Origin: Minisyncoccota bacterium | GTDB taxonomy: Bacteria > Patescibacteriota > Minisyncoccia > Phycocordibacterales > UBA1550 | Length of the DNA stretch: 64,000 nucleotides | Assembly: GCA_023229865.1 (NCBI GenBank) | Contig: JALNYL010000002.1 | Coordinates: 27,577-91,576, forward strand | Reading direction: 5' to 3' | Shown here: positions 9,321 through 58,677 of the stretch, piece by piece | Position numbering within the stretch: position 1 is the first letter of the stretch | Layout: each line of letters starts with the position of its first letter | Notes under the pieces: model-generated | The model's input: only the letters and a program-made list of their open reading frames with translations | The model's database searches: none | What the model was told of the DNA's origin: nothing | Made by a program: the position numbers and the translations under genes

Positions 9321-9458
9321 TTCTGCCTCCTCTGAAATATTAATGGACGTGACCTAAGTCAAAATTACACCAAAGGGGAGGGGAAGTAAAGAGGGGGTGG
9401 ATGTCTAAGAGAAAACAGGGTAACAACATTGCTTTCACAATGTTGTTACCCTGTTCTA

Positions 9459-9670
9459 TGCGGGTAGGGCTCTCGGTCACGAGGGAAACACGAATCGTGC
9501 GCTACTCGCGCAAAGTTTACTTGTCGAGAAACAACAGGAGAATCGGGGTCAAGTTTCTAAGCTCGTAAACTCGCTAAGAACTTTCTCCCCGGGCTCGCTG
9601 ACAAGCACTCACTTCGTTCGTCTTGTATACCAGCTCCGCCTTTCGATTCTCCCTACCCGCTACAAAATGC
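9459..9670 (+). repeat. tRNA-Gly-associated repeat element, copy 2 (~212 bp)
   Basis: Begins ATGCGGGTAGGGCTCTCGGTCACGAG and ends CCCTACCCGC. These termini match the acceptor of the adjacent tRNA-Gly(GCC). Same conserved core as copy 1, with a longer internal insert. Confidence 0.6.
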
Positions 9671-9708
9671 AACAGCGCCGAAACATATGTTTCGGCGCTG
9701 GCGTTTTG

Positions 9709-9779
9709 TGCGGGTAGGGAGAATCGAACTCCCGTCTCGTCCTTGGCAAGGACGCATTCTACCACTAAACCATACCCGC
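9709..9779 (-). tRNA. tRNA-Gly (anticodon GCC)
   Basis: Reverse complement reads GCGGGTATGGTTTAGTGGTAGAATGCGTCCTTGCCAAGGACGAGACGGGAGTTCGATTCTCCCTACCCGCA. Anticodon loop TTGCCAA. Confidence 0.85.
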
Positions 9780-10124
9780 AAATTATCAATATCGTTTTAA
9801 AGTATAGGCTTTTCGCCAGCGCTTTATAACAATTCCTAGTATACAGATTTTTAAACTTTTTGGAAGAGGGGAGGGGGGTTTATGAGAAACACATGCGAAA
9901 TGTTTCATGAATAACATAGGGTTGCCAGGATTCGGCTCGCCTTACGGCCGAGACCATCCATTTTAATAGTCGTTGCACTCCTTTAAAATGGTGGGGTCAC
10001 GATAAATCTAGGACACTGCGATTTTAGCGGGTTGAGTACAACCCAAAAAAATCGGGAGCCTACGGTTCGAATCCTGGCGGGAGCACAAAAACGAAAAAAT
10101 CGCCATCGGGCGATTTCGTTTTTG

Positions 10125-12275: not shown

Positions 12276-12767
12276 CTAGTCGCTATTTTTAACACGAGAC
12301 TGCTCACTCATCAGCGCAAAAGCACCCACTAATCCCTTTGCTGCCTTCATGGAGCGGTCGACTTCTACCTGCCGCAGTTCGGCTGAGGCAGCCTTCAATT
12401 GAGTATGAGCGCCGAGCACTGCGTGATGGTCAATCTGCGCAGCAGTCAACAAGTCGATCAGACTCTGCCCATGATAGTCCCTCAAGGGCATGCTGGGCCA
12501 GCGACCAGTCAAGGGCCCCAAGGACTTCCATTTGATTGCGAGCACATAGAGCTCCTTCATGCGCGCAAGGACGCTTTTTGCCCGTATTTGAGATATGTCA
12601 TCCAGGGAGCCCCAATGATAAATCGTCGGGCGGGTGACGAGAAAAACTCGTGCCGCATCGGCAACATTGAGAGCGAATGCATCCCTGACAGTGTTCAGCA
12701 TCTCGGCTGGAGTCAATACCCCCTGCGCGCCAGTCGTTTCATTGGGAACAGGAAAATTAACCTGCAT
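12276..12767 (-). CDS. Xre-like HTH / DUF2384 (Xre-MbcA-ParS C-terminal) antitoxin-like protein, orphan and GC-rich
   Basis: 163 aa. N-terminal ARVFLVTRPTIYHW HTH-like segment. C-terminal W..P...L.G.SLIDLL.T..G...V...L pattern typical of DUF2384. The ORF is visibly more GC-rich than its flanks. Confidence 0.45.
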   Translation of the reverse strand: MQVNFPVPNETTGAQGVLTPAEMLNTVRDAFALNVADAARVFLVTRPTIYHWGSLDDISQIRAKSVLARMKELYVLAIKWKSLGPLTGRWPSMPLRDYHGQSLIDLLTAAQIDHHAVLGAHTQLKAASAELRQVEVDRSMKAAKGLVGAFALMSEQSRVKNSD

Positions 12768-14362: not shown

Positions 14363-15349
14363 TTATTCCTCCCTGCTCTTCCCGTGAAACTTCTTGTGTA
14401 CGTTGCGAAGCTCACTATCCGTAACGTGTGTATATATCTGCGTCGTAGAAATATTTGAGTGGCCGAGCATCATTTGTACCGAGCGAATATCAGCGCCGTT
14501 ATAAAGAAGGTCGGTTGCAAACGAGTGACGCAAGATGTGGGGTGTCACCTTATCCATGATGCCAGCCTTTGCTGCATAGTGTTTCACCATACGTTCAATC
14601 GAGCGGGGAGTGAGACGAAGTGAGCCATCGTCTCGTGCCTTATCGCTCGCAAAAAGCGCATCGTCCATATCTTTTCTCTTTTTCAAATATGCTGCGATTG
14701 CAGTCTTTGCCTCATCAGAGAGAAACACCACGCGAACTTTCTCTCCCTTACCACGCACGGATATTTCATCGCGGGTAAGATCAATATCGCGCTGAAGCGC
14801 GCAAAGCTCTGAGAGACGAAGGCCGGTCGAGAAAAAGAGCTCGAGAATAGCCTTGTCGCGAAACTCTTTTACCGAGTCACCACTTGGTGCAGCGAGGAGG
14901 CGATGGAGGTCTTGAACACTCAGTAGGTCGATAGTGCGCTCTGCAACCTTCGCAAGTTCAATCTTTTCAGGCGAATACGACTCAACACCACGCTTGCGTA
15001 AATATTTGAGAAAGCTACGAATAGCAATCAAGTAATAGTTTTGAGTTTTCTTTTTGAGTGTTTCATGACGACCCTCGCGCACACCTGACTCTTGTCTGTT
15101 GAGCCAGAGACGGAAAGTACGAATGAGATCATCGGTAACATCGCTTGGCTCCTTCGCCCCACTCGCAGTGAGGAAGCGAGTGAGGTAGCGCTCGTAGTTC
15201 TCGATAGTCTTCAAGCTTCGCCCGCGCTCAATCTCCAAGTACTCAAGATACTGTCGTGCGTAGTTGCCGAGGGTGCTTTGAGGAATATTGTGCGACATAT
15301 ATATCATTATAGTACACTCACGCGCGCGAAGTAAGCAAACGTTTTGCAA
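14363..15349 (-). CDS. xerC: Tyrosine recombinase XerC/XerD family
   Basis: 328 aa. C-terminal catalytic region HILRHSFATDLLYNGADIRSVQMMLGHSNISTTQIYTHV carrying the R..H..R..Y residues. N-terminal SAM-like core-binding domain. Confidence 0.85.
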   Translation of the reverse strand: MQNVCLLRARECTIMIYMSHNIPQSTLGNYARQYLEYLEIERGRSLKTIENYERYLTRFLTASGAKEPSDVTDDLIRTFRLWLNRQESGVREGRHETLKKKTQNYYLIAIRSFLKYLRKRGVESYSPEKIELAKVAERTIDLLSVQDLHRLLAAPSGDSVKEFRDKAILELFFSTGLRLSELCALQRDIDLTRDEISVRGKGEKVRVVFLSDEAKTAIAAYLKKRKDMDDALFASDKARDDGSLRLTPRSIERMVKHYAAKAGIMDKVTPHILRHSFATDLLYNGADIRSVQMMLGHSNISTTQIYTHVTDSELRNVHKKFHGKSREE

Positions 15350-16863: not shown

Positions 16864-16927
16864 AACATTCAATGAAAAAACCCGACGAATTTCGTCGGGT
16901 TTTTGTTTTGAAGCGATGAGGCTTGGG

Positions 16928-17170
16928 TCATGTGCGTGCGGCCATGATGACCCGCGCGGCGCGGTTAAGCCACTGAAGGGACTGTTGGTGCGCTTTTTTC
17001 TCGGTGTTCACAGGCTTGATCCGCTGATCTTCTGGAACCGTAGCGGTCGGGTGAGTTCCCAGGAACGAATCCTTGTTGTCATCCATTGCGCGCTGCTGCG
17101 CTAATCTGCGGCGGATTTCAAACGACGAATGGCCCCCCGTGGGACTATCTTTTCCTTTTCCTTGATCCAT
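16928..17170 (-). CDS. Hypothetical small protein, GC-rich
   Basis: 80 aa. SD-like AGAGG lies 9 nt upstream of the ATG. Followed by the bidirectional hairpin 16872-16908. GC content clearly exceeds that of the surrounding DNA. Confidence 0.35.
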   Translation of the reverse strand: MDQGKGKDSPTGGHSSFEIRRRLAQQRAMDDNKDSFLGTHPTATVPEDQRIKPVNTEKKAHQQSLQWLNRAARVIMAART

Positions 17171-17307
17171 CTTGCTTACCTCTTTCTTTTGTTGTTGTAC
17201 AAAAAACCAGCCCGTACACTAACACGACTCTGAAAAACTTGCAACCCCCCTTAAAAATATCTTTTTGAGGGGGGTGTATAAACAAATCCCCTATACGAAA
17301 CACGATA

Positions 17308-18336
17308 GTGAGGGTATACTATACTAATATTATGGAACCATCTCCTCTTTCAAAACTTGAACCTGGCGTCTATCAAGGAATCCCCGACAATCTCAAAGAG
17401 AAAAAGTCGGCGGCCCCACGCATTGTCCGCACTATGAAGAGTGACGTAGCAGAAGCAATCAGAGACCAGGAAGAAACAACGGTCAGTATTGCTGTGGCAG
17501 AACAAAAAAAGCGTGCGCGCCTTCAATCAGAAGCACAGCAGACCCAACAAGCATCTGGCGAACCAGCCCCCGCACCGAAGCGCATTGGCCGTTTTATTGT
17601 AATCATCATTGTTCTTATCCTCCTTGGGCTTCTCGGCGCTGCATACGTATTTGTGTTGCCCAAATTAAGCGCAATCAAACTCCCGAGCGTTTCTCTCCCT
17701 TCCTTCGGTAGTCCCGCGAATACAAATGTCGCAACAACAACAGCGCCGACGACCCCCGCACTCGCAAACTCTCTCATCCCCGCACAGAGCGAGAAGCGTT
17801 TCGACATTACGAAAGAAGCGCGCGGGCAAATTTCTAAAGACATCGCAAGTGAACTCACCACCGGCGACACAGCAGGAAATATTAAAAATCTTTTCTTTAT
17901 CGAAGAAAGCGCGGGGATTTTCAGTGAAATATCTGCAAATCGCCTCATTATGTTCTCAGGAGCAAGTGCGCCAGAGATTTTCACCCGATCTCTTGAAAAG
18001 GGATTCATGGTGGGACTTTTAGTAGAAAACGTTGGCGCTTCAACACCATTTATAGTTCTTAAGGTTTCCGAGCGAGAACTCGGCTTTGCAGGAATGCTCG
18101 AATGGGAAAAATCACTGCCAACATTTTTTGACAATATGTTTGGCACCAACATCGGCACAGGGATTCCCCCAGAAACACGCTTCCGTGATCTCGTTATCTC
18201 AGGGAAAGACGCTCGCATGATTGCCGATGGGATAGGTAGTGGTATCGCATATTCATTTGTAAACAACACAACAATCATAATTGCAGGAAGTCGCACTGCG
18301 CTTGAGACCCTCATCCCGCTTGCCTCTACAAAGTAA
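17308..18336 (+). CDS. Hypothetical membrane-anchored protein
   Basis: 342 aa. Single TM helix FIVIIIVLILLGLLGAAYVFVL after a ~90-aa cytoplasmic N-terminus. The antisense 263-aa ORF was rejected. Confidence 0.5.
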   Translation: MRVYYTNIMEPSPLSKLEPGVYQGIPDNLKEKKSAAPRIVRTMKSDVAEAIRDQEETTVSIAVAEQKKRARLQSEAQQTQQASGEPAPAPKRIGRFIVIIIVLILLGLLGAAYVFVLPKLSAIKLPSVSLPSFGSPANTNVATTTAPTTPALANSLIPAQSEKRFDITKEARGQISKDIASELTTGDTAGNIKNLFFIEESAGIFSEISANRLIMFSGASAPEIFTRSLEKGFMVGLLVENVGASTPFIVLKVSERELGFAGMLEWEKSLPTFFDNMFGTNIGTGIPPETRFRDLVISGKDARMIADGIGSGIAYSFVNNTTIIIAGSRTALETLIPLASTK

Positions 18337-31238: not shown

Positions 31239-33284
31239 TTGGGTATGGACTTACAAAATTTTTTACAAGATGAAAGAAAGAAGAAGATTTTAATTATTAG
31301 CGGAATTGTATTGTTTGTTGTTTTAGGTTCAATTTTTATTTTTAGTCGAAATAATCCTGCCCCCGTGGACACGACAGGAGATGGACAAACTCAGCTTTTG
31401 GACGACCTCGCAGGGATTGCACCAAGAGATGGGGTTGCTCAGGACCAAAATCGTCTCGTCGCACCACTTGTTAAGGTTTCAGCGGATGTCCCCGTCGTTG
31501 CCCCAGGACAGCCTTCTGTGATTTCTTGGAATGCAACCAACGCGACAAGCTGTGTCGACGGCAGTGGTAATGCTATCCGCACAAGTGGTAGTCTCTCTAT
31601 CACTCCTACAGAAAACTACACCATGGATGTGGTTTGCACCAACCCAAAGGGTACAACCATTGAGTCTATTACGGTTGCTGTTACAACGACACCCATCATT
31701 ACCCTCAGCGCATCTCCCGAATCAGTTCTTGCAGGAGAGCAATCTTTCATCTCGTGGAACACCGTCAACACCACTCGCTGCACCGACAGTGCAGGAAAAA
31801 CACTTCGTTTGAGCGGCGGTATGCCCGTTGTGATTTCAAAGCCTTACACCTTTGAAATTAACTGTTCTGGCCCAAATGGCACCGACAAGAAATCGATAAC
31901 GGTGGGAATTTCTACGGTAAAGACCACTGAAAGCGAGCTTAAATATGTCTGGGTATTTAAATCAAAAGCAACGGCGACAAGCGCCTCAAAAACGTCCACG
32001 TTCCAGACAAGCGCTGGCTGCCAATCTGCATATGAAAATTCGACCGCATACTCAAAAACAGCTTGTACAAAGGTTCCCGTTGGCACAGCTGGGTCGACCA
32101 CAGTAAACGATAGCAACTCCGGAGGAACAGTAGGAGGAGAAGAGATTCTTGTCTGTATCACCCTCAACCAAACCCTTGAGCTAAACTCAACGGACGCCAA
32201 CGCAAACGGCGAAGTAACGGTTCTCCAGAAATTCCTTAATCGCAAAGGGTTCTTGAGTGCCGCACCATCAGGAAATTTTGGAAGTCTCACCGAAGACGCG
32301 GTTAAGCAATTCCAGATTTCTGAGGGGATCCCTGCAACTGGCAAAGTTGACGCAGAAACAAAAGTTAAAATCAAAAGCGTAAGCTGTGCAGACGCCGAAG
32401 CCGCGGCAAAAAAACTCGCGGACGAAATTAACGCAGGGAAAAAAGAAAATGAAACTACAACCGTAGGAGAAGGAACTCTTGGCCCAAAAATTAAACTCAC
32501 AATGTCTCCTGACACCATTGGTTTTGGACAGACAGCAGTGCTCACCTGGGAAATTGCTGACGCAGTGAGCTGTATTGTAAAACCGCTAGGAGGCAGCGCA
32601 ATTGCTGTTGTCGCCGGGAAAACGAGAGTTCTCGAAGAAGGGAAAGCATTTGCGATTCCTGACGACACAGGATTTTCTGGATCATATAGCCTGAAATTGA
32701 ACGGGGCAGATCTTAGTGTTAAGTTTGAATTTAAATGTAGTGGAGCTGGAATCACCGCAACCAACCAGAAAACTCTTTATTGGGATACGGCATCTGCTTC
32801 TTTTACAGAAGCAGCAACAATAGACGATCTTGAAGCAAGTCCTACAGCCATCGCAGAAGCTGCAATAGGAGCAGAATCCGAAGTAAGTTGGACCGCCTAC
32901 AACGCAACGAGTTGTAAAGTTAGTGGCGATGCTTACACAAGAATCCTCACCGATAGTGGCGAGTGGAAATCTCTTAAGGGCCTTGCTTCAGCAGCACCAA
33001 CAACAGGAGTAGTGCGTATTAAGCCAGGATTTGAAGGTTCTCAGGTGCCATACCACTCAGAGCAGGTCACTACAACATGTCCACCATATAGTGGTGACGG
33101 AGGAGATTACTGTATTCCAACAACAAGCACCGTGACATCAGGTGACGGCGCGCGTAAGGGCAACGAGACAGCAGTGGTTACGGTCTCATGTACGGGACCT
33201 ATTAAACCAGATCCAAAACCAAAGTCTGTGGCGATAACCATTACTCCAACCCCTCCTCCTTCTGGCGGTGGTGGAGGTTGGTAA
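31239..33284 (+). CDS. Large cell-surface protein with repeated Ig-like domains and a central peptidoglycan-binding domain
   Basis: TM anchor near the N-terminus. At least three repeats of SxISWNxxNATxC..G. PG-binding-like GEVTVLQKFLNRKGF..EDAVKQFQISEGIPATGKVD. C-terminal PPPSGGGGGW. Terminator at 33298-33338. Confidence 0.55.
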   Translation: MGMDLQNFLQDERKKKILIISGIVLFVVLGSIFIFSRNNPAPVDTTGDGQTQLLDDLAGIAPRDGVAQDQNRLVAPLVKVSADVPVVAPGQPSVISWNATNATSCVDGSGNAIRTSGSLSITPTENYTMDVVCTNPKGTTIESITVAVTTTPIITLSASPESVLAGEQSFISWNTVNTTRCTDSAGKTLRLSGGMPVVISKPYTFEINCSGPNGTDKKSITVGISTVKTTESELKYVWVFKSKATATSASKTSTFQTSAGCQSAYENSTAYSKTACTKVPVGTAGSTTVNDSNSGGTVGGEEILVCITLNQTLELNSTDANANGEVTVLQKFLNRKGFLSAAPSGNFGSLTEDAVKQFQISEGIPATGKVDAETKVKIKSVSCADAEAAAKKLADEINAGKKENETTTVGEGTLGPKIKLTMSPDTIGFGQTAVLTWEIADAVSCIVKPLGGSAIAVVAGKTRVLEEGKAFAIPDDTGFSGSYSLKLNGADLSVKFEFKCSGAGITATNQKTLYWDTASASFTEAATIDDLEASPTAIAEAAIGAESEVSWTAYNATSCKVSGDAYTRILTDSGEWKSLKGLASAAPTTGVVRIKPGFEGSQVPYHSEQVTTTCPPYSGDGGDYCIPTTSTVTSGDGARKGNETAVVTVSCTGPIKPDPKPKSVAITITPTPPPSGGGGGW

Positions 33285-38555: not shown

Positions 38556-39386
38556 ATGAACGAAGAAATTCAAAAAATCATTGAGGAACAACTCCCGAAA
38601 CTCCCAAAAGAAGTTGTGACTTTTTTGTCGTCAGCAAGTTGGGACGAGCACATACTGGAGATCAGCACGCTTTATAATCTCCCTGAAGATGAAGTAGCGA
38701 GTCTTAAAAATGAAGTAATTTTTGTTCTTATTGGACTAACGCCCCCTGATGAATTCAAAGAGATTCTTAGTGAGGAGACAGCTCTTCGAGGCTCTGTCCT
38801 TGATGCAGTCGTTTCTGCGGTGGAGAATAAAATCTTTGCTCCCGTTCGCCCCGCTCTTGCTGTGTTTTTTGAACAAGAAGCAGCACTTGCTACTGAATTC
38901 CCAGAAGAAGTATCTTTGGGGGTCGCAAAGGAGGCGACAGGAGAGGAGCCCCTTGCGGCACAAGGAGAGATAGTAGAAACACCGCAGGAAGCAGGGACTC
39001 TTCAGCTCGCGCCAACAACGGAGGAGATTATTCCTGCTCCATCAGTAGAAAAATTTACTTCACCCTTCTCCGCCATTATCCAACCAACACAAGTAAGAAC
39101 ATGGGAGAAAACCCCTGAGGTCGTCCCTGACAATCTTCCTACTGAGGACGCCGCGGAATCATTCTTGCCAAACCTTACCCCAAAAACTGTTGCGCAAACA
39201 GAAACTACTACAACCGCAGAACCAGAAGGGCACCCCTTTGAAGAAAAGATGAAGAAAGTATTTACCGCAGGACAGCAGTCGATGGGAGAGCTCGCTATTG
39301 AGCAAACAGTGCCGGCCACAAGCACCCCAGAGCGAAATGCTCCCCCCATTTATCACACAGACCCCTACCGCGAACCAATCGAATAG
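38556..39386 (+). CDS. Hypothetical acidic protein (T4SS-like cluster)
   Basis: 276 aa. E/P/T-rich, low complexity in the C-terminal half. Confidence 0.4.
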   Translation: MNEEIQKIIEEQLPKLPKEVVTFLSSASWDEHILEISTLYNLPEDEVASLKNEVIFVLIGLTPPDEFKEILSEETALRGSVLDAVVSAVENKIFAPVRPALAVFFEQEAALATEFPEEVSLGVAKEATGEEPLAAQGEIVETPQEAGTLQLAPTTEEIIPAPSVEKFTSPFSAIIQPTQVRTWEKTPEVVPDNLPTEDAAESFLPNLTPKTVAQTETTTTAEPEGHPFEEKMKKVFTAGQQSMGELAIEQTVPATSTPERNAPPIYHTDPYREPIE

Positions 39387-39444
39387 AACATTAAAAAGAA
39401 AAGGCCCTCATCACTGAGGGCCTTTGAGTTGTGTTTCGTTTCGA

Positions 39445-40197
39445 TTACTTCGCCGGAGATACAGCCGGAACGCCAGAAGCGGCGGCTGCATTCAGCTTGT
39501 CCATTGCGGGCACGAGCTTATTGAAGCCATCGGCGAACTCGGTTGCAATCACTTGCATGGAGATGTTTTTGCTGATCTCCCCCGACAAAACGTCAGGGGT
39601 ATCCACCGCCATGAGTGCAACGCCGAGATTGGTGTCGTCGCTCTTGGCCTGTCCGAGGACAGAAGCAATGGACTCGCCGGTCTCCATATCAACAACAGAC
39701 AGCGTAACCATAGCCTCAGTGAAACGCAGGTCATGCATCCCCCTCGACATTTCTTTTTGGGCGAGGAGTCCACCGAAAAGTGGGATTCGGCGGACGGCGC
39801 CAGCGGTTACAGCATTGTAGCTGTTCCCGATGACGGGTTGTGCCATTTCCATTTTCAGCTTGAATTTAACGCCGGCAGTGCCCGGTTCAACGAGAGTAAA
39901 GCAACCAGCCTGTTTTACCGCGTGACGGACAGTCACATCCACCATCGGGAAAGGGAGGCCGACACGGTTGAACATGAACGACAGCGATTTCGAAGAATTG
40001 TCCTCGAGAACCGCGCGGCCGTAGTTCTTGGCGCACTTGGAGAGCGCCGAAGCTGCTGGCTTCGCTGCTTCGGGAGCGGATGCCGCCGAAGGTGTTGCCG
40101 AGGTGCTGTTCACCAGATCGGTGATGTCAGCAGATGCGGAACCAACGAACAGAACGAACAGAAACAGGATCGAAACGAGATTTTGAATGAACTTCAT
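39445..40197 (-). CDS. Secreted protein (CsgG/LpoB-like fold suspected); GC-rich, opposite strand inside the T4SS-like cluster
   Basis: 250 aa. Clear signal peptide MKFIQNLVSILFLFVLFVGSASA. By eye the gene looks substantially more GC-rich than the window average. The overlapping plus-strand 269-aa ORF is an R/C-rich antisense artefact. Confidence 0.5.
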   Translation of the reverse strand: MKFIQNLVSILFLFVLFVGSASADITDLVNSTSATPSAASAPEAAKPAASALSKCAKNYGRAVLEDNSSKSLSFMFNRVGLPFPMVDVTVRHAVKQAGCFTLVEPGTAGVKFKLKMEMAQPVIGNSYNAVTAGAVRRIPLFGGLLAQKEMSRGMHDLRFTEAMVTLSVVDMETGESIASVLGQAKSDDTNLGVALMAVDTPDVLSGEISKNISMQVIATEFADGFNKLVPAMDKLNAAAASGVPAVSPAK

Positions 40198-40367
40198 GAT
40201 TGCTCTCCTTGTCTACGGTTGAGTTTCAAATGAGAAGAATAATGCTTTTCCCAAGTAACAGCATAGCAGATATTAAAATTTTGTCAACCCCCTAAATTAG
40301 TTCAATATTTTAAACAATAGAGTATAATACTCATACAGAAGGACGTATTTCCCAATATTCTACCCTC

Positions 40368-40829
40368 ATGCAATTTCACATCCCCCAGTACATCGATATC
40401 GAGGACAAGCTCTTTGGTCCACTTACTCTTAAGCAGGCGATTTATTTAGCTGGTGGCGCAGGTGGTATTTATTTGTTCTACCGCATTATCCCCTATATGT
40501 TTATCAAAGCGCCAATTATTTTGGCGATTGCGGTCCTCACGTGGGCACTCGCATTTTTCCCAAAAGAAAAACTAGGGAAACCATTTATCGATGTTCTTGA
40601 AGCAGCCTTTGCTTATATGCTCAAGGACAAGCTCTACACGTGGAAAAAAACAACGAAAGAGGCTGGTGCAAAAAAAGAAGAAGACTTTTTACCTTCTGTT
40701 CCAATAGCGACCCCTTCGGTCTCTGTGGGGAAACTCTCTAGCGCTTCGTTTGATCTCGACGTTCGCGGAGCCCAAAAAGGAGTGGAGGAACAAGACAAAA
40801 CGGGGAAAGATAGTGATATACTAAAGTAA
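40368..40829 (+). CDS. PrgI/VirB3-like small membrane protein
   Basis: 153 aa. DKLFGPLTLKQAIYLAGGAGGIYLFY resembles the PrgI-family fGpLTxrQ signature, followed by two TM helices. Confidence 0.45.
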   Translation: MQFHIPQYIDIEDKLFGPLTLKQAIYLAGGAGGIYLFYRIIPYMFIKAPIILAIAVLTWALAFFPKEKLGKPFIDVLEAAFAYMLKDKLYTWKKTTKEAGAKKEEDFLPSVPIATPSVSVGKLSSASFDLDVRGAQKGVEEQDKTGKDSDILK

Positions 40830-40833
40830 TACC

Positions 40834-41487
40834 ATGGCAGTTAAATCAAAAGCAGCACAAGATTTTGTTCCCATTAAAGAAATCCGCGACGGTGTCGTGA
40901 TTTTAAAAGACGGAACCATCCGTATGCTTCTTATGGCATCTTCGGTCAACCTCGCCCTCAAGTCTTCAGATGAGCAACAGGCGGTTTTGATGCAGTTCCA
41001 AAGTTTTTTGAACTCCCTAGAATTTTCAACTCAGGTATTTATCCAATCACGCCGTCTCGACATTCGCCCCTACCTTATTCTTCTTGAAGAGCGCCTCCAT
41101 GAGGAAGTCAACGATCTTCTTAAAATTCAGATTCGCGAATATATGGGCTTCGTAAAAACCATTGCTCAGTCCACCAATATTATGAGCAAGCTCTTTATTA
41201 TTGTTGTTCCTTACGCGCCACCAAAATCAGTTACGAGCTCTTCGTCATCAAGTGGGGGATTTAGCCTCTTTGGAGGGAAGAAGGACACAAGCAGCACTCC
41301 ATCGCAAAGCGCCGTCGAGGCTTTTGAGGAGGCACGCACACAGCTCGAGCAGCGCGCAGGTATTATCAGTCAAGGGCTCGCGCGCACGGGGGTTCGCGTG
41401 GTTCCCCTTGGTACTGAGGAGCTCACCGAGCTTTACTATCGCCTATTCAACCCAGGAGAGGTAGAGAAGAAGGTCGACGTAAGATAA
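40834..41487 (+). CDS. VirB4/TrbE-family ATPase, N-terminal domain fragment (separate ORF)
   Basis: 217 aa. AQDFVPIKEIRDGVVILKDGTIRMLLMASSVNL is the characteristic N-terminus of Gram-positive-type VirB4/TcpF/PrgJ ATPases. It ends 14 nt before, and in a different frame from, the ATPase ORF. Confidence 0.6.
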   Translation: MAVKSKAAQDFVPIKEIRDGVVILKDGTIRMLLMASSVNLALKSSDEQQAVLMQFQSFLNSLEFSTQVFIQSRRLDIRPYLILLEERLHEEVNDLLKIQIREYMGFVKTIAQSTNIMSKLFIIVVPYAPPKSVTSSSSSSGGFSLFGGKKDTSSTPSQSAVEAFEEARTQLEQRAGIISQGLARTGVRVVPLGTEELTELYYRLFNPGEVEKKVDVR

Positions 41488-41500
41488 CAAAACTATTTTT

Positions 41501-43342
41501 ATGATTAATTTTTTTGGAAACAAACAACCAACAACTACAGAGGCAGAAAAAAATTCTGTCCCCGTACTCCCTCAAGACCTTTACGCTGATACAGGCCTCA
41601 ACCTCGCTGATGTTATTGCTCCTTCTGCCGTAAAAATAGAATCCAAAGAACTCATCCTGGGAGAAAAGGTTGTGCGCTCATTTTTCATCACCTCATATCC
41701 AAGCGTTGTCACCGACAACTGGCTTTCTCCGCTCATCAACCTCGACAAAGTTTTTGATATTGCGATTTATATCCACCCTGTCGACACAGCAGACATAATG
41801 AAGAAGTTTGAAAAGAAGGTTGCTGAGGTTCAAAGCCAGATCAATGTCCGCGAAAGTAAGGGTTTTGTCCGTGACCCAATGCTCGAGTCAGCATATCGCG
41901 ATCTCGAAGAGCTTCGTGATCGTCTCCAGCAAGCGCAGGAAAAAATGTTTGACGTAGGACTTTATATAACCCTTTACGCTGACAGTGAGGAGGAGCTCAA
42001 TCATGCCGAAGCAGAGATCAAGTCAATGCTCGAGTCACGTCTTATCTACATTCGCCCAGCACTCTTTCAACAAGAAGAAGCTTTTCAAAGTATTATTCCG
42101 GTCAACAGTGACAAGATCGCGGTCACAAAAAAGATTAACTCGGAGCCACTCTCGAGCTTCTTCCCGTTTGTGTCATTCGACCTCACATCAGACAAAGGGA
42201 TTCTCTATGGTATCAACCGTCACAACTCTTCGCTTGTTCTCTTCGACCGCTTCTCTCTCGAGAACTACAATTCGGTTACTTTTGCGAAGTCTGGTTCTGG
42301 TAAATCATTTGCAACAAAGCTCGAAATTTTGCGTAGTTTGATGTTTGATATCGATGTCATCGTTATCGACCCAGAGCGTGAATATGAGTCAATGGCCGAA
42401 GCAGTGGGTGGCCGTTATTTCAATATTTCTCTCAACTCCGAACACCACATCAACCCATTTGACCTTCCTGTTCCTCGCGAAGATGAATCTCCTGCGGATG
42501 TTCTTCGTGCAAACATCATTTCTCTTGTTGGACTCTTCCGTATCATGCTTTCAGGACTCAGCCCGGAGGAGGATGCTATCGTCGACCGCGCGATCTCAGA
42601 AACATACGCACTTAAAGACATTACTCCTGACTCAGACTTCTCTGCGATAGAGCCACCACTTCTCTCTGACTTTGAAATGGTGCTTTCAGGAATGGAGGGA
42701 GCAGAAGGTATTCTTACTAAGCTCACCAAATACACCCGCGGATCATGGGCAGGATTCATCAATAATCCTTCAAACGTCGACATCAACCGTAAATTCATCG
42801 TCTTCTCAGTGCGCGACATGGAAGACGACTTGAAGCCTGTGGCAATGTACCTCGTGACACACTTTATTTGGAACGCAGTGCGTCGCACACTCAGAAAGCG
42901 TCTCCTTGTGGTGGATGAGGCTTGGTGGATGATGAAGTCCGAAGACACGGCCGCCTTCCTCTATGCGCTCGCAAAACGTGGCCGTAAATACTACCTCGGA
43001 ATCGCGACGATCACCCAGGACGTAAACGACTTCTTGAAATCCCCATACGGCTTGCCAATTATGACCAACTCGTCAATTCAGATTCTTCTTAAGCAGTCGC
43101 CGACATCAATCGATGCCGTCCAAAAAGCTTTCAACCTTACTGACGAGGAGAAATTCTTGCTTCTTGAGTCAGGAGTAGGGGAGGGCATCTTCTTTGCCGG
43201 AATGAAGCACGTGGCTATCCGTTCTATTGCTTCCTACACCGAGGAACAAATCATCACCTCAGACCCAGGGCAGATCCTCGCTATCAAAAAAGCAAAGCGC
43301 GAACTCGCGGAAGCAGAAGCATCAGGAGGGGGAAGTATCTAA
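41501..43342 (+). CDS. VirB4/TrbE/CagE-family type IV secretion ATPase (ATPase domain)
   Basis: 613 aa. Walker A FAKSGSGKSF. Walker B LLVVDEAWWM. C-terminal GIATITQDV..TNSSIQILLKQS motif block typical of VirB4. Confidence 0.8.
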   Translation: MINFFGNKQPTTTEAEKNSVPVLPQDLYADTGLNLADVIAPSAVKIESKELILGEKVVRSFFITSYPSVVTDNWLSPLINLDKVFDIAIYIHPVDTADIMKKFEKKVAEVQSQINVRESKGFVRDPMLESAYRDLEELRDRLQQAQEKMFDVGLYITLYADSEEELNHAEAEIKSMLESRLIYIRPALFQQEEAFQSIIPVNSDKIAVTKKINSEPLSSFFPFVSFDLTSDKGILYGINRHNSSLVLFDRFSLENYNSVTFAKSGSGKSFATKLEILRSLMFDIDVIVIDPEREYESMAEAVGGRYFNISLNSEHHINPFDLPVPREDESPADVLRANIISLVGLFRIMLSGLSPEEDAIVDRAISETYALKDITPDSDFSAIEPPLLSDFEMVLSGMEGAEGILTKLTKYTRGSWAGFINNPSNVDINRKFIVFSVRDMEDDLKPVAMYLVTHFIWNAVRRTLRKRLLVVDEAWWMMKSEDTAAFLYALAKRGRKYYLGIATITQDVNDFLKSPYGLPIMTNSSIQILLKQSPTSIDAVQKAFNLTDEEKFLLLESGVGEGIFFAGMKHVAIRSIASYTEEQIITSDPGQILAIKKAKRELAEAEASGGGSI

Positions 43343-43412
43343 AAACAAAAGTCCACAAAAAGATCCTTCTTTTTGTGGACTTTTGCTGAATATTCGCGGT
43401 ATAATAAAATAT

Positions 43413-44534
43413 ATGTATCAAAGGCAGACACTACTCCTTGGTGCTCTTGTAAGCATTTTTTGTGTGCCTCTTTTTGTTTTTGCACAGACATCAACGACAA
43501 CAGCGGAACAACCAAACGCAAGTGATGCATTTCAACAAAAAATCAACGAGCTTATTCAGCGACAACTCGACGCTGCTCCAACAGCAGAAGAAATTCTCAT
43601 AAAAGCAGTTGCCGACAACCTTGAAGTAAAAACGGTTCCATCAAAACCAAGCCCCAACGAATCTGTAAAAGTGTCTATCCAAAGCTATCTCATTGATCTC
43701 AATAAAGCATCAATTGTGTGGACCCTCAATGGGAAAGTGGCACTAAGTGGTGTCGGAGAAAAAGTATTTACATTCACCACGGGGAACAGTGGAGAAACAA
43801 CGACACTTCTTGTTTCCATGACGGCGAACACAGGGGAGGTAATAACTAAAGAATTTTCTTGGACCCCTGTTGGGGTTACTCTCTTTTGGGAAGCGGACAC
43901 ATACACCCCTCCTTTTTATAAAGGGAAGCCACTTCTTTCCTACGAGGCAAAAGTAACGGTTATAGCAACCCCCGACAACACAGACTCAAAAAATGCACTC
44001 AGTGCAGGAAATCTTGTTTACACTTGGAAGAAAAAAGGGATGACAGACGCCAGTGTTTCTGGGTATGGGAAAAATTCATTTTCTTTTACAGGACCAAGAC
44101 CATTCAGCACAACCAATGCTAGTGTCTTGGTATCCTCTGTTGATGATGCAATTAATTCTGAAGCAAAGGTTAATCTTTCTCTTTCAACCCCCTTTATTCT
44201 TTTTTACGAAAATCATCCACTCTTAGGGACTCTTTACAATAAACCATTTGGAAAAGGAATGAGTCTCTCAAGTAAGGAGCTTTCGATAAGCGCTGCTCCT
44301 TACTTCTTCTCAAAAGAGCCGGCAACAACACAAACAATGCAATATAACTGGACAACAAACGGAAGACCTGTTCAGAACGAAGGAAAAAACATTACGCTTC
44401 GTAACGAAAAAGGAGAGGTTGGGTCTGCCGAAGTTTCTCTGTCAGTAAGGGGTCTCCGCCAAACTTTCCAAACAGCTAGTCAAAACCTTCGCATTGATTT
44501 TACAGAAGACACGTCAAATAAGCCTTTATTTTAA
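43413..44534 (+). CDS. Hypothetical secreted protein (T4SS-like cluster)
   Basis: Signal peptide MYQRQTLLLGALVSIFCVPLFVFAQ. Beta-rich S/T-rich body. The start is taken at the ATG at 43413. Confidence 0.45.
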   Translation: MYQRQTLLLGALVSIFCVPLFVFAQTSTTTAEQPNASDAFQQKINELIQRQLDAAPTAEEILIKAVADNLEVKTVPSKPSPNESVKVSIQSYLIDLNKASIVWTLNGKVALSGVGEKVFTFTTGNSGETTTLLVSMTANTGEVITKEFSWTPVGVTLFWEADTYTPPFYKGKPLLSYEAKVTVIATPDNTDSKNALSAGNLVYTWKKKGMTDASVSGYGKNSFSFTGPRPFSTTNASVLVSSVDDAINSEAKVNLSLSTPFILFYENHPLLGTLYNKPFGKGMSLSSKELSISAAPYFFSKEPATTQTMQYNWTTNGRPVQNEGKNITLRNEKGEVGSAEVSLSVRGLRQTFQTASQNLRIDFTEDTSNKPLF

Positions 44535-44537
44535 ATT

Positions 44538-45557
44538 ATGAAAAAATACTTTTTACCAGCGGTCGTCTCTTTCTTTCTCCTCTTTTCAGTAGGGGTGCTC
44601 TCTGCGTACGCTCAAGTAGAGGCAAACTACACCCCCCTCGCCCCCCTGCCAGGAACAACAATTCAGAGTGGTGACGGAGCTGGCACAACAAACATCTCAA
44701 CGTACGTTGCAGGAATGATCAAGCTCCTTGTTGCTCTCGGAGCGGCGCTTGCCGTCCTCTTTGCGATTATTGGTGGGACGCAGTATGTCGCCGCAAGTAT
44801 CAACCCCGCAGCAAAGGCTGGAGCACTTGAGCGCATCCAAAACTCTCTTGTTGGCTTGGCAATTATTCTCTCTTCGTATCTTGTTTTAAACTCTATCAAC
44901 CCAGACTTAGTAAACTTTAAACTTGAACTTCCCCCTGTTACGGTACGACATGAGGTAAATGTTACCGCAGGAGGTTCAACAATAGATGATGCTGGGTGCC
45001 CCACCATCACCACCCCTTCTGTTCTTTTAAATTCGACAGAGTCTCAACAACTAGAATCTGGAGCAACGGTTGTTTTCACGGCAAGCGATGCAACTGCAGA
45101 CGTACAGGCCAACCTACAAACACTGCAAGGGGAATCAAATAAACTAATCCTTGCCCTCCCACAACTTAACTCTGGGATAAAGGCCACCGTTACCTCTGCA
45201 TACCGCCCATATGTATATCAAAAACATTTGTATGAAATATATGACACATGGGTCAAAAAAGATCTAAAAAACAACACCAACCCGGCCTGCGCCGCAAACA
45301 AAACCTTCGTTGGGGCCGAATCAACAAAACACTTTGGCCCTAATGGTCCCGGACTCGTTGCGAACCCAGACGGACAAATCGCTCCTCACACAAAAGGCAC
45401 AGGGATCGATATTAAATTAGAGGGGATTGAGTATGGGAATTTTACGGCTTATGGGTACGCTGATATTAACGATTTTATGGTCCACAACGGTATTTATCTC
45501 AGCTGGCAAGGTCTCCAGAATGACAAGGTTCACTTTAACTTGAGAAGTAGGCCATAA
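44538..45557 (+). CDS. Putative VirB2/TrbC-like pilin-domain protein with C-terminal extension
   Basis: Signal peptide then two hydrophobic helices separated by a short loop (MIKLLVALGAALAVLFAIIGGTQYV / LVGLAIILSSYLVLNSINP), as in T4SS pilins. Followed by a ~200-aa soluble domain. Confidence 0.3.
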   Translation: MKKYFLPAVVSFFLLFSVGVLSAYAQVEANYTPLAPLPGTTIQSGDGAGTTNISTYVAGMIKLLVALGAALAVLFAIIGGTQYVAASINPAAKAGALERIQNSLVGLAIILSSYLVLNSINPDLVNFKLELPPVTVRHEVNVTAGGSTIDDAGCPTITTPSVLLNSTESQQLESGATVVFTASDATADVQANLQTLQGESNKLILALPQLNSGIKATVTSAYRPYVYQKHLYEIYDTWVKKDLKNNTNPACAANKTFVGAESTKHFGPNGPGLVANPDGQIAPHTKGTGIDIKLEGIEYGNFTAYGYADINDFMVHNGIYLSWQGLQNDKVHFNLRSRP

Positions 45558-50399: not shown

Positions 50400-51500
50400 A
50401 TGAACTTCACTTGTAATAGAGAAACTCTTCAAAAATATATAACCAACGCCGAGAGGGTTACAGGGAAGAATTCATCACTTCCTATTCTCAGTTCTGTTTT
50501 GATTGCTACAAATGGGAAGTCTTTAGTTATTCGTTCAACCAATCTCGAAGTAGGAGTTGAGTTTCAAATTCCTGCTGAAATAAAAGAAGAAGGAAGTGTT
50601 GCTGTTTCAGGATCTCTTTTTTCAAATATTCTTATGAGTATTCCTGATGAAGAATCAGTTACCGTTTCTGTAAAAGATAGTGTTTGTAAAATAATAACCA
50701 AAACAAAAAATATCACGGTCAAAGGACTTCTTCCTGATGATTTTCCTACTATCCCGGTGATTAATGAAGGAGAAAGTTTTACGATTCAATCACAGGTTTT
50801 TATTCAAGGAGTTAAATCAGTTCTTATGAGTGCTGCTATTTCTGATATTAAACCAGAGATTTCAAGCGTATATGTGTATCAAAAAGAGAAGAGCTTGGTA
50901 TTTGTCGCTACGGACTCTTTCCGTCTCGCTGAGAAGAAAATAGACTACAACGGAGAGGAACTTTCTCAAGGAGTTATTATTCCTGTAAAAAATATTATGG
51001 AAATAGTAAAACTTTTTGATGGAGTTATGGAAAACATACTCTTTAAAATAACAAAAACACAGATTTCTTGTGTTAGTAAATCGGTATATGTAACATCACG
51101 CGTTATTCAAGGGGTTTATCCAGACTATGAACAGATTCTTCCTAAAAATAACACTACGGAAATAGTGATGTTAAAACAAGATCTTATTAATACTCTTAAA
51201 CTCTCAACTCTTTTTTCGGATAAATTTAATAAAATTCAGTTTATTGTTGAACCATCTCAGAAAAAATGTTTAGTTTTTACAAAAAATTCTGATATTGGAG
51301 AAACAGAGTCAAATCTTACAGTGACGATGTCGGGAGAACCAATAGAAATATCATTAAATGGGAAACATCTCTTTGATTGTCTCAGTGTTATCGCGGAAGA
51401 TAGTATTGTAATGCAGTGTAATGGTTCAAATAAACCAGCAGTGATTCGTGGTCTTGGAGATAACTCATTTGTGTATCTCACTATGCCACTTACTAAATAA
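50400..51500 (+). CDS. dnaN: DNA polymerase III beta subunit (sliding clamp)
   Basis: 366 aa. Three-domain beta-clamp pattern. Sits immediately downstream of dnaA/oriC. Confidence 0.9.
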   Translation: MNFTCNRETLQKYITNAERVTGKNSSLPILSSVLIATNGKSLVIRSTNLEVGVEFQIPAEIKEEGSVAVSGSLFSNILMSIPDEESVTVSVKDSVCKIITKTKNITVKGLLPDDFPTIPVINEGESFTIQSQVFIQGVKSVLMSAAISDIKPEISSVYVYQKEKSLVFVATDSFRLAEKKIDYNGEELSQGVIIPVKNIMEIVKLFDGVMENILFKITKTQISCVSKSVYVTSRVIQGVYPDYEQILPKNNTTEIVMLKQDLINTLKLSTLFSDKFNKIQFIVEPSQKKCLVFTKNSDIGETESNLTVTMSGEPIEISLNGKHLFDCLSVIAEDSIVMQCNGSNKPAVIRGLGDNSFVYLTMPLTK

Positions 51501-51505
51501 ACATT

Positions 51506-51760
51506 ATGATTCCTTTAAACCAACTTCTTAATCGGTTTAAAAACCTCACTAATAGCGAAAAGGTTAAAAAACAACTTGTGGTAGAAATTTTAACAAACAA
51601 AAAAATTCCTATTACGATTGATCAAATTTCTATTTCAAAAACCACCGTTTTTACAAAAGTTCCTCCTATTATAAAAACAGAACTTCTTTTCCAGAAAGAA
51701 GAAATATTAAAAGAAATACAAAAAATTTCCGGACTTACTACGATATCAAATATTCAGTAA
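51506..51760 (+). CDS. Hypothetical small protein downstream of dnaN (possibly DUF721/DciA-like)
   Basis: 84 aa. The assignment rests on its position after dnaN and on its basic/hydrophobic pattern. No firm motif. Confidence 0.3.
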   Translation: MIPLNQLLNRFKNLTNSEKVKKQLVVEILTNKKIPITIDQISISKTTVFTKVPPIIKTELLFQKEEILKEIQKISGLTTISNIQ

Positions 51761-57552: not shown

Positions 57553-58677
57553 ATGAAACATCAAATTGCCACCGTCCTCAAAATCTCATCACTTGCGCTC
57601 GTTCTTTCCCTTGGTCTTTCCTACGCTCTCGCCTGGACTCCACCTACTTCAAACCCACCAAGTGGCAACGTTGCTGCCCCTATCAACGCAAGTGCAACCG
57701 CACAAGAAAAGCTTGGTGACCTTACCCTCAGCAGACTCTTCACAACCGCTTCTTCAAGTATTGGTACTACGGCACAGACACAGACACTCACGGTTGCAGG
57801 AACCATTGGTGCGACAGGAGATATTTGTACGGCGGTGGGCGGAGGATCGTGTTTGAGTACGGCGGGAGGAGGGCTTATTGACCCAACACCAATCGGCTCC
57901 GTGGCTTCATTCGCAGGCTCAGTTGCTCCAAGTGGCTACCTCATCTGTGATGGTACTGCAGTATCTCGTACTACCTACGCGTCACTCTTTGCGGTGATTG
58001 GTACAACATATGGTGCAGGCAACGGCTCAACCACTTTCAACCTCCCTGATCTTCGAGGAGAGTTTATTCGTGGGCTTGATAAAGGTCGTGGAATTGATGC
58101 GGGGCGTGCGCTCGGTAGCTGGCAGGCTGATTTACTCAAGAGTCATACCCATACCGCATACGTTATTGCGCCAGGAGGTGGTTATGGTCCGTATTCTAAC
58201 ATTATGGGGCCTCAAACAATCACCACTTCTGCTACGGGGGGAGCTGAAACTCGCCCTCGCAACGTTGCGATGAACTATGTGATTAAGGCCCTCAACAACA
58301 GTGAGATGGTGCTCATGGCTACATCAACGGTCGCTTCACTTATTCCTGCAGGTGCGGTTATGCATTTCGACCTTGCAACGTGTCCTACTGGGTGGTTGCC
58401 CGCAAACGGAACAGGAGGAACGGTAGATCTCCGTGGAGAGTTCATCCGCGGTCTCGATAGTGGGCGTGGGGTGGATGCTGGGCGTACCCTTGCGAGTGCA
58501 CAAGGACAAGCTATTCAGAGTCACACCCACACATTTACAGCACAGATTTCTGGTATCTATACATACTCAAATGTTGGAGGAACGCAGGGGACCCAACAAG
58601 GAGGCACGACTGCGGCTACTGGCGGCACGGAAACTCGCCCTCGCAACGTTGCACTCCTTGCGTGTGTGAAGTCGTAG
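57553..58677 (+). CDS. Secreted protein with two phage tail-collar (MdpB-like) domains
   Basis: Signal peptide. Repeat 1: GYLICDGTAVSRTTYASLFAVIGTTYGAGNGSTTFNLPDLRGEFIRGLDKGRG. Repeat 2: GWLPANGTGGTVDLRGEFIRGLDSGRGVDAGRTLASAQGQAIQSHTH. Both are the classic Phage_tail_collar pattern. Confidence 0.75.
   Translation: MKHQIATVLKISSLALVLSLGLSYALAWTPPTSNPPSGNVAAPINASATAQEKLGDLTLSRLFTTASSSIGTTAQTQTLTVAGTIGATGDICTAVGGGSCLSTAGGGLIDPTPIGSVASFAGSVAPSGYLICDGTAVSRTTYASLFAVIGTTYGAGNGSTTFNLPDLRGEFIRGLDKGRGIDAGRALGSWQADLLKSHTHTAYVIAPGGGYGPYSNIMGPQTITTSATGGAETRPRNVAMNYVIKALNNSEMVLMATSTVASLIPAGAVMHFDLATCPTGWLPANGTGGTVDLRGEFIRGLDSGRGVDAGRTLASAQGQAIQSHTHTFTAQISGIYTYSNVGGTQGTQQGGTTAATGGTETRPRNVALLACVKS

Follow-up and report, generated by a model that had tools for sequence, protein, structure and literature searches.

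We examined a 64,000-nucleotide stretch (the window) of contig JALNYL010000002.1 from a Minisyncoccota bacterium belonging to the Candidate Phyla Radiation (CPR), in which a gene of high GC content lies on the minus strand within a cluster of type IV secretion system (T4SS) genes. The gene, at 39445-40197, is real, and its locus is a self-contained promoter-to-terminator cassette of approximately 0.9 kb on the minus strand (39400-40287). Our results incline us, with considerable reserve, to the view that this cassette was horizontally transferred and encodes a non-lipidated envelope factor of the CsgG superfamily, one that is optional, maintained by selection and not a core component of the T4SS. 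The gene carries the NCBI locus tag M0P64_01165 and is annotated as hypothetical. A database entry for the identical protein exists in a Candidatus Pacebacteria metagenome-assembled genome (MAG), where it is likewise called hypothetical. The elements of the cassette, together with an open reading frame (ORF) on the opposite strand, are as follows.

40260 to 40287, minus strand: sigma-70-type promoter of the cassette (TTGACA, 16 nt, TG-n-TATGCT), recognized by sequence motif and upstream alignment
40229 to 40236, minus strand: conserved 5'-leader motif TTCTCATT, from the alignment of family copies
40203 to 40210, minus strand: Shine-Dalgarno sequence AAGGAGAG, 5 nt 5' of the ATG, read from the sequence
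39445 to 40197, minus strand: coding sequence of the 250-residue protein, predicted to be secreted and to belong to the CsgG superfamily
39400 to 39425, both strands: bidirectional hairpin terminator (11-bp stem and T-run), ending the cassette on the minus strand and a gene for a 276-residue protein on the plus strand
39424 to 40233, plus strand: spurious ORF of 269 residues in the codon-aligned reverse frame, a by-product of codons missing from the sense gene

The family to which the gene belongs is small, with 7 clusters among 5.8 billion in a word-based search and 15 representatives at E ≤ 1e-10. We recovered 13 genomic contexts, and the sense ORF was intact in all 13. Upstream alignment of the copies revealed that the promoter, with its TG extension, is kept in most low-GC copies, and that the Shine-Dalgarno sequence is conserved among the aligned copies. 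Most copies from CPR and Betaproteobacteria carry the leader motif, in the form TTCTCAT(T/C), approximately 35-45 nt 5' of the ATG. The possibility that the leader is a regulatory RNA was discarded, as a search of Rfam gave no match, the sole hit being far under threshold. At the other end, the hairpin is symmetrical and thus also terminates the upstream plus-strand gene, and downstream alignments revealed a homologous hairpin 3' of the copy on a Gallionellaceae contig (L003). Homology between copies starts just 5' of the -35 box and stops past the T-run of the terminator. The window contains a single occurrence of the promoter motif GGTTGACAAA-N9-TCTGCTA (0 expected), and in 92 loci the motif was present only 5' of family copies, including those of L089 and L092. 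L094, which is outside the 92 loci, carries the same promoter. As judged from these alignments, the cassette moves as a unit, and it would be transcribed independently from its near-consensus promoter.

Selection on the gene was examined with synonymous divergence (dS) and its ratio to non-synonymous divergence (dN/dS). Synonymous sites were saturated for all pairs of family members except L001 and L086, and this single unsaturated pair gave a dN/dS of 0.27, indicating purifying selection. The promoter is retained even in L089, whose copy is only 27% identical at the protein level. Taking into account the intact ORFs in the 13 contexts, the dN/dS value and the conserved promoter, the gene is unlikely to be a decaying passenger.

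The plus-strand ORF (39424-40233) is longer than the gene and would be chosen by a naive longest-ORF rule. The initial annotation, made from the sequence alone, had regarded it as spurious and due to the high GC content, and this proved to be correct. The gene contains no TTA, CTA or TCA codons, and as these are the sole codons that generate stops in the opposite frame, that frame stays open. Searches of Pfam and NCBIfam gave no family match and no homologues for the ORF, and it is disrupted in several of the homologous loci in which the sense ORF is intact. We therefore rejected it as a gene. That the plus-strand ORF is real after all, or that chimeric assembly or contamination produced the GC-rich segment, is exceedingly unlikely. 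Promoter, ribosome-binding site, terminator, signal peptide, conservation and dN/dS all match the minus strand. In addition, the identical arrangement, with the same junctions, was assembled independently in several data sets (a 784-kb JGI contig, a 349-kb ENA contig and Logan contigs), which rules out an assembly artefact.

The primary structure of the protein can be divided into three segments.

40129 to 40197, minus strand: signal peptide, residues 1-23, MKFIQNLVSILFLFVLFVGSASA followed by D, read from the sequence, with cleavage predicted by the AxA rule
40045 to 40128, minus strand: low-complexity Ala/Ser/Pro linker, residues 24-51, with the conserved stretch AASAPEAAKP (alignment A1)
39478 to 40044, minus strand: CsgG-like alpha/beta domain, residues 52-240, with the invariant residues Cys55 and Cys99

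A secreted protein with a signal peptide had been proposed by the initial annotation, and the predicted signal is indeed of the Sec type, with a cleavage site (ASA/D) that appears to be of the signal peptidase I type. The protein would be exported by Sec and cleaved after Ala23. The same annotation had considered a CsgG/LpoB-like lipoprotein. The fold agrees with this, as described below on the basis of profile hits and predicted structure, but the lipid anchor does not; neither the target nor any of the 15 subfamily members contained a lipobox in a pattern search, and in all of them the first 54 residues are free of Cys. Two AlphaFold2 models, both of the monomer, gave predicted local distance difference test (pLDDT) scores of 72 and 81 and displayed the alpha/beta core fold of CsgG. 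The linker (residues 24-51) had a pLDDT of 30-51 in both. In CsgG, two hairpins from each subunit form the 36-strand barrel of a nonamer. Segments equivalent to these hairpins (residues ~126-156 and ~186-211) are shortened in the target, the first with a pLDDT of 48-72 in its monomer models. Judging from their invariance, Cys55 and Cys99 may form a disulfide bond. The C-terminal residue is Lys (..AK, ..TK or ..KK) in 13 of the 15 subfamily members and Phe and Arg in the other two (alignment A3, P0001-P0018).

Concerning the superfamily, the target gave no direct match to the models of Pfam, NCBIfam and PHROG. With the Pfam CsgG model (PF03783, gathering score 20.8 bits) there was no hit even at E ≤ 10, and the best scores within the subfamily (P0012, 14.3 bits; P0013, 12.7 bits) were under the gathering score. 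A profile of the family, on the other hand, collected 103 relatives among 1.84 billion representative proteins; 69 of them were scanned, of which 48 match Pfam CsgG and 20 weakly match LpoB. The A1 profile matches P0011 (3.6e-31), P0016 (2.5e-16) and P0026 (1.1e-08), and these three proteins score 23.4, 39.2 and 51.5 bits with PF03783, above the gathering threshold. When PDB sequences were searched with the wider A2 profile, E. coli CsgG was the sole meaningful match (E = 0.012), whereas the narrow A1 profile retrieved nothing meaningful. Among the remote relatives, which are lipoproteins of the classical type, P0011, P0016, P0026, P0027 and P0031 have a lipobox; Gly-rich segments occupy the positions of the membrane hairpins of CsgG in these relatives. 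The subfamily of the target has lost the lipobox and approximately 25 residues after the second strand, and its hairpin equivalents are shortened. By profile linkage and predicted structure, the protein is a divergent, non-lipidated member of the CsgG superfamily.

We compared the protein with characterized members of this fold. It is linked to CsgG, the curli channel (PF03783; PDB 6lqh, 4q79, 3x2r), through proteins above the Pfam CsgG threshold, and like CsgG it is an envelope protein of about 250 residues that, by its predicted signal peptide, is Sec-exported. It differs from CsgG in the absence of the lipid anchor, of a direct Pfam hit and of the ER..L...G..GQ segment that makes up the ~25 residues missing after the second strand, as well as in its shorter hairpin equivalents. 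Moreover, the conserved Cys pair is found only in the branch of the target, none of the curli genes csgA/B/E/F is present among the neighbours in the window or related loci, and its host, a CPR bacterium, is believed to lack an outer membrane. LpoB (activator of PBP1B; PF13036; PDB 4q6l) resembles the target in having an export signal, a long flexible low-complexity linker and a small alpha/beta domain that falls in the same fold class. The target did not reach the gathering score of PF13036 and has no lipid anchor, and we therefore do not assign it to LpoB. The structural match to LpoB was clearly weaker than that to CsgG, and a link to a PBP1B partner is without support. PelC, LptE, TraT, HpaA and the flagellar LPHT-ring basal-body protein are outer-membrane-associated lipoproteins of two-membrane bacteria that share the core fold but have no relation to the target at the sequence level. 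The fold score for TraT was well under that for CsgG, and the target showed neither a family match nor a lipid anchor nor a best fold match that would make it a TraT surface-exclusion lipoprotein. CsgG, PelC and TraT form ring-shaped oligomers acting as envelope or surface scaffolds. By analogy, the target would probably assemble into a ring-shaped scaffold of the envelope or surface. Its CsgG-fold domain would be positioned outside the cytoplasmic membrane on the flexible Ala/Ser/Pro linker, and would probably be stabilised by a Cys55-Cys99 disulfide.

The composition of the gene was then compared with that of the window. Its GC content is 0.551 against 0.452 for the window, the highest of 56 genes (z = 2.4), which agrees with the estimate made by eye in the initial annotation. 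The richest 753-bp window in all 64 kb starts at 39401, and 0.19% of windows reach the GC content of the gene. The GC content at third codon positions (GC3) is 0.629 against a mean of 0.434 in the 56 window genes (z = 3.2), only one other gene of the window has a more atypical codon usage, and the tetranucleotide distance has a z of 2.25; composition and codon usage thus both differ from those of the flanking genes. CTG accounts for 9 of the 22 Leu codons, compared to approximately 3% elsewhere. Since the third codon position deviates most, amino-acid content is not the cause of the high GC content. A codon bias linked to high expression was also rejected as the cause of the GC3 value, as the gene ranks 33rd of 56 on a ribosomal/EF-G codon index. 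It employs CTG, GCC, GGC, TCG and CCG, which the ribosomal/EF-G set shuns. Similar deviations are found elsewhere in the family. In seven of eight low-GC contexts, the GC content of the family gene exceeds that of its flanks by 0.09 to 0.15, whereas in the five Betaproteobacterial contexts it is within -0.04 to +0.04 of them. With 50-57% GC, the cassette matches Betaproteobacterial genomes and is 9-15 points above CPR genomes. We also calculated the log-likelihood ratio of codon usage under Gallionellaceae and CPR codon tables. The ratio was +0.10 for the window gene, -0.3 to -0.55 for native CPR genes and +0.49 for a native Gallionellaceae gene. Family copies ranged from -0.17 to +0.17 in every host except L090, whose copy (-0.46) looks fully adapted.

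The best homologue of the window protein is found on contig L003, with 61-64% amino acid identity. This contig was assigned to Gallionellaceae on the basis of its PpsR, which shares 95% identity with the PpsR of a Gallionellaceae MAG. The neighbour-joining tree of the family places the window copy together with that of L003 (97% bootstrap) and the copy of L088 together with that of L091, a Rugosibacter-like contig (100%); the CPR copies are not monophyletic. From the tree, at least three transfers between CPR and Betaproteobacterial lineages would be needed. Among the contexts whose taxonomy was judged, the family is present only in Yonathbacteria-like CPR and in Gallionellaceae/Rugosibacter-like Betaproteobacteria. 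The gene has a composition unlike that of its host, is patchy among close relatives, as described below, and has its nearest relative in another lineage. Sequence comparison thus supports the arrival of the cassette in this lineage by horizontal transfer, and points to repeated exchange of the family between Yonathbacteria-like CPR and groundwater Betaproteobacteria (Gallionellaceae and Rugosibacter-like). Neither of the outcomes that the initial annotation named as refuting it, GC and codon usage like those of the flanking genes or best hits confined to the same lineage, was observed, and the best homologue comes from a different phylum. The initial annotation had envisaged a recent acquisition, and here only the transfer itself holds. 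Synonymous divergence is saturated, the window and L003 copies (dS 1.85) share 67% nucleotide identity, and neither near-identical donor DNA nor low synonymous divergence was found. The window and L001 share the insertion site, and their core genes have dS values of 1.3-1.9. With regard to direction, the composition speaks for a Betaproteobacterial pool, and the shape of the tree and the shared promoter appear equally compatible with a CPR pool.

Alternatively, the gene may be native to CPR and owe its GC content to selection, either on amino-acid content or through high-expression codon bias. The GC3 of 0.60-0.63 in two CPR genomes (those of the window and L001) in spite of saturated dS in their shared genes would be consistent with this, as would the conserved CPR-type promoter in the deepest branches of the subfamily. 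Ribosomal genes of the window also have a raised GC3 (S7, 0.54; S15, 0.55). We regard this explanation as very unlikely. The codon usage and GC3 results above argue against both forms of selection, 80 related loci lack the gene, with clean empty sites, and the window copy groups with that of Gallionellaceae.

No dedicated means of mobility was recognized. We found no integrase, transposase or terminal repeats, and no recombinase beside the cassette in any locus. Plasmids, phages and IMG/VR viral contigs contained no family copy, PHROG gave no hit, and a metagenome scan with the family returned only the already known contig. Toxin-antitoxin pairs adjoin only the Gallionellaceae copies, and the cassette does not have the plasmid or phage presence, or the adjacent integrase or transposase, of mobile-element cargo. 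L087 has an upstream region in common with L003, and the two carry different toxin-antitoxin pairs next to the gene (L003 7077-7579 and L087 3-345; ParE with an antitoxin versus HicA/HicB), as is typical of a variable genomic region. These pairs raised the idea of an integron cassette, but no GTTRRRY core site was seen by eye in the Gallionellaceae copies and no integrase was present within the contigs.

The genes of the T4SS cluster relevant to the insertion site are the following.

31239 to 33284, plus strand: peptidoglycan-binding protein, identified by family searches
38556 to 39386, plus strand: conserved T4SS-cluster protein of 276 residues, ending in DPYREPIE, the last gene of the upstream transcription unit, with orthologues in related CPR loci and no Pfam hit
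40368 to 40829, plus strand: PrgI/VirB3-like protein (Pfam PrgI, 3e-09), the first gene of the PrgI-VirB4 unit (40368-43342)
40834 to 41487, plus strand: VirB4 N-terminal-domain protein (TraC/TrsD-like) of 217 residues, matching the TrsD/VirB4 N-terminal region
41501 to 43342, plus strand: CD1110-type VirB4 ATPase of 613 residues (NCBIfam, 3e-111)
44538 to 45557, plus strand: T4SS-pilin-like protein, identified by family searches

All other genes between 31239 and 46943 are on the plus strand, so that the gene at 39445-40197 is, as the initial annotation had stated, the sole minus-strand gene of the cluster. The cluster also holds several secreted or membrane proteins without family matches, and Pfam and NCBIfam scans of the window proteins revealed no relaxase. 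It adjoins yidC, rnpA, dnaA and dnaN. This fits the description of the Patescibacteria T4SS, a chromosomal, MPF-FATA-like system near dnaA, whose cluster in Paceibacteria is beside these same four genes (PMC12102498). A CsgG-like component is not among the parts of the system listed there. Using tblastn and three hidden Markov model profiles, we searched for the family in 80 related CPR T4SS loci, taken from the species-representative CPR genomes whose VirB4 is closest in sequence (71-94% identity) and including several Candidatus Yonathbacteria. None of the 80 contained it. The gene thus does not have the conserved presence of a core Patescibacteria T4SS component, and the cassette is an insertion in the cluster rather than a part of it.

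The gap between the gene for the 276-residue protein and PrgI is occupied in four CPR genomes, those of the window, L001, L086 and L089. The gene is antisense in L001 (identical in L002 and L085) and L086, and in the sense orientation in L089, the 27%-identical copy. In L005, L006 and L007 the gap is empty, with 115-405 bp that contain only a terminator and the PrgI promoter. In a tree of T4SS proteins, the window and L001 group together with 100% bootstrap, in a clade with the cassette-less L005 and L006 and with L089, again with 100%. Cassette-bearing and cassette-less genomes thus belong to one clade, and the presence of the cassette is patchy. We also looked for other antisense genes at this gap, but the minus-strand ORFs in L014, L041, L058, L079 and L080 are of low complexity and look spurious. 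The family has a second site, between pth and a major facilitator superfamily (MFS) transporter gene, in the low-GC genomes L088, L090, L092 and L094. This site is defined jointly, by pth upstream in L092 and L090 and by a shared downstream membrane protein in all four.

The main rival to an optional factor is that the protein genuinely belongs to the T4SS machinery as an accessory, which could surround the channel as an extracellular ring or cap or serve in surface exclusion like TraT; its location in the locus would then be a consequence of function. Use of the same gap in four CPR genomes, one of them with a 27%-identical allele in the opposite orientation, would be expected in this case, as would purifying selection on the gene. 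We nevertheless consider such a role unlikely. The gene is missing from all 80 related loci, including its sisters L005 and L006 of the same clade. Four low-GC copies are located between pth and MFS genes, and the five Betaproteobacterial copies have no T4SS genes nearby. According to the predicted signals, the gene is transcribed alone, outside the T4SS operons, and it matches neither TraT nor any other T4SS family. The prospect that homologues in another phylum would be linked to secretion systems, raised by the initial annotation, was likewise not borne out by the five Betaproteobacterial copies. Its suggestion that the gene may be a cargo or accessory factor of the T4SS is weakened by these same distributions. 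We favour the interpretation that the position within the T4SS locus is a permissive site, because in every related genome the gap coincides with an operon boundary, at which a terminator precedes a promoter, and because it tolerates either orientation and, in L001, an unrelated Cys-rich gene. The cassette would have inserted at the boundary of two T4SS transcription units, one ending with the gene for the 276-residue protein and the other being the PrgI-VirB4 unit. Having its own promoter and terminator, it could do so in either orientation without polar effects. Its product would be an optional envelope factor maintained by selection and not a core part of the T4SS.

Several further features of the cluster were observed. 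The Cys-rich protein of L001 has 231 residues with a CxxC repeat (9116-9811) and is encoded between the cassette and PrgI. A second extra gene of L001 encodes an FAD_binding_4 protein of 469 residues (16917-18326), and these two genes indicate that the T4SS cluster accepts other insertions too. Orthologues of the 276-residue protein in L001, L005, L006, L086 and L089 are only 30-58% identical, yet always have the C-terminal (D)PYREPIE. VirB4 is split into two ORFs (217 and 613 residues), a split kept in L001 and related CPR loci. The ORF of 435 residues at 43227-44534 has a TTG start inside the 3' end of VirB4. Its L001 orthologue begins with MYQRQTLLLGAL, and comparison of the two suggests that the true start is probably an ATG near 43404.

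Turning to the Betaproteobacterial contexts, L004, L091 and L093 are Rugosibacter-like. One protein encoded near the L004 copy clusters at 90% identity with a Rugosibacter protein, and the neighbours are 75-89% identical among the three contigs. The CsgG-like gene is paired there with a gene for a Gly-rich lipoprotein (L004 7495-8307, with an overlap of 4 bp, and L091 1836-2549), and an Amidase_2 cell-wall amidase is encoded nearby. The combination of these genes suggests an envelope-related operon in the Rugosibacter-like lineage. The Gly-rich lipoprotein was considered as a partner of the protein and rejected, as it has no homologue in the CPR loci.

The restriction of the family, among the contexts judged, to Yonathbacteria-like CPR and Gallionellaceae/Rugosibacter-like bacteria, with copies that interleave in the tree, raises a further alternative. 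The protein may be a host-interaction factor exchanged between episymbiont and host, a host-type periplasmic or outer-membrane protein that the CPR cell would deploy where the two cells meet and that might, for example, serve as a pore or a mimic within the envelope of the Betaproteobacterium. Members of the superfamily are otherwise outer-membrane lipoproteins, proteins of an envelope that CPR bacteria are thought to lack. In addition, the Patescibacteria T4SS is reported to be essential for epibiotic growth in Saccharimonadia (PMC12102498). Physical association of the lineages in question, however, is without support, secretion is supported by the Sec signal peptide alone, and no clear amphipathic character is seen in the counterparts of the CsgG membrane hairpins. 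A shared aquifer habitat would also permit gene exchange without symbiosis. We therefore judge a host-interaction factor to be distinctly unlikely. We hold equally little confidence in a more specific proposal, in which the cassette marks, and may join in, a specific partnership between Yonathbacteria-like CPR and iron-oxidising or aromatic-degrading Gallionellaceae/Rugosibacter, with the envelope protein, of outer-membrane type, swapped repeatedly between them and used by the CPR cell beside the T4SS at the contact site, perhaps as a ring or pore set into or against the envelope of the host.

A number of points weigh against the horizontally transferred, optional and anchor-less CsgG-superfamily factor that we prefer. 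Only about 20 sequences of the family are known, and its taxonomic limits are those of the contexts whose taxonomy was judged, a set to which the contigs with the pth/MFS site do not belong. The Pfam thresholds for CsgG and LpoB were missed, and placement in the superfamily relies on transitive profile hits and a predicted fold. The hairpin-equivalent segments are short, charged and modelled with low confidence, and formation of a ring or pore is a proposal. Occupation of the same T4SS gap in four genomes by very different alleles could mean a functional link. The deepest branches of the subfamily are in low-GC contexts with a CPR-type promoter, which also fits transfer from CPR to Betaproteobacteria. 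Furthermore, the GC3 of approximately 0.6 retained in CPR genomes as diverged as those of the window and L001 is not explained by a simple lack of amelioration; either repeated allele replacement from a GC-richer pool or some other force holds the composition.

The T4SS cluster and single-gene transfer in aquifer Patescibacteria are already known (PMC12102498, PMC12455944). Single-gene transfers into and among these bacteria have been described as mostly not recent, with Pseudomonadota as rare partners (PMC12455944). The cassette fits this picture. Unlike the cases described, it represents one small family with several exchanges with two Betaproteobacterial lineages and has its own promoter and terminator. 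CsgG and CPR bacteria were not mentioned together in any of the top-ranked papers of a literature search. With the cassette, the CsgG superfamily gains a new branch that lacks the anchor and whose distribution, limited to two lineages, is unusual.

The window contains other regions of atypical composition. In the region 50400-51760, the dnaN gene, encoding all three DNA polymerase III beta domains, has a GC content of 0.33 and a GC3 of 0.22, and an ORF of 84 residues 3' of it has a GC content of 0.27. Both are far under the window mean of 0.45 and display the strongest tetranucleotide deviation in the window. This foreign-looking composition is odd for a core replication gene beside dnaA. The most atypical codon usage in the window was found in a minus-strand ORF of 163 residues (12276-12767; GC 0.54, GC3 0.585). 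It has no family match and is located approximately 1.6 kb from a tyrosine recombinase gene (Phage_integrase, 14363-15349, minus strand), and may be another small acquired element. A protein of 374 residues (57553-58677) has a phage tail collar domain (Pfam Collar, 1.7e-28), and its gene has an unusually high GC content at the second codon position (0.59).

If the protein is linked to neither the T4SS nor a host, the cassette would be an ordinary orphan transferred gene. Its site is of interest in its own right, as a permissive position between two T4SS operons that takes up a full promoter-to-terminator unit in either direction matters for the reading of gene order. The CsgG superfamily otherwise consists of lipoproteins of bacteria with an outer membrane, which CPR bacteria are thought not to have. 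A member without a lipid anchor, under purifying selection in a bacterium thought to be single-membraned, raises the question of what the fold does there. To our knowledge, the hosts of most groundwater Paceibacteria are unknown. The cassette may be of most value as a pointer to the hosts of the CPR bacteria concerned: confinement of the family, among the contexts judged, to one CPR group and two Betaproteobacterial lineages, with at least three exchanges, would provide a concrete hypothesis on host identity.

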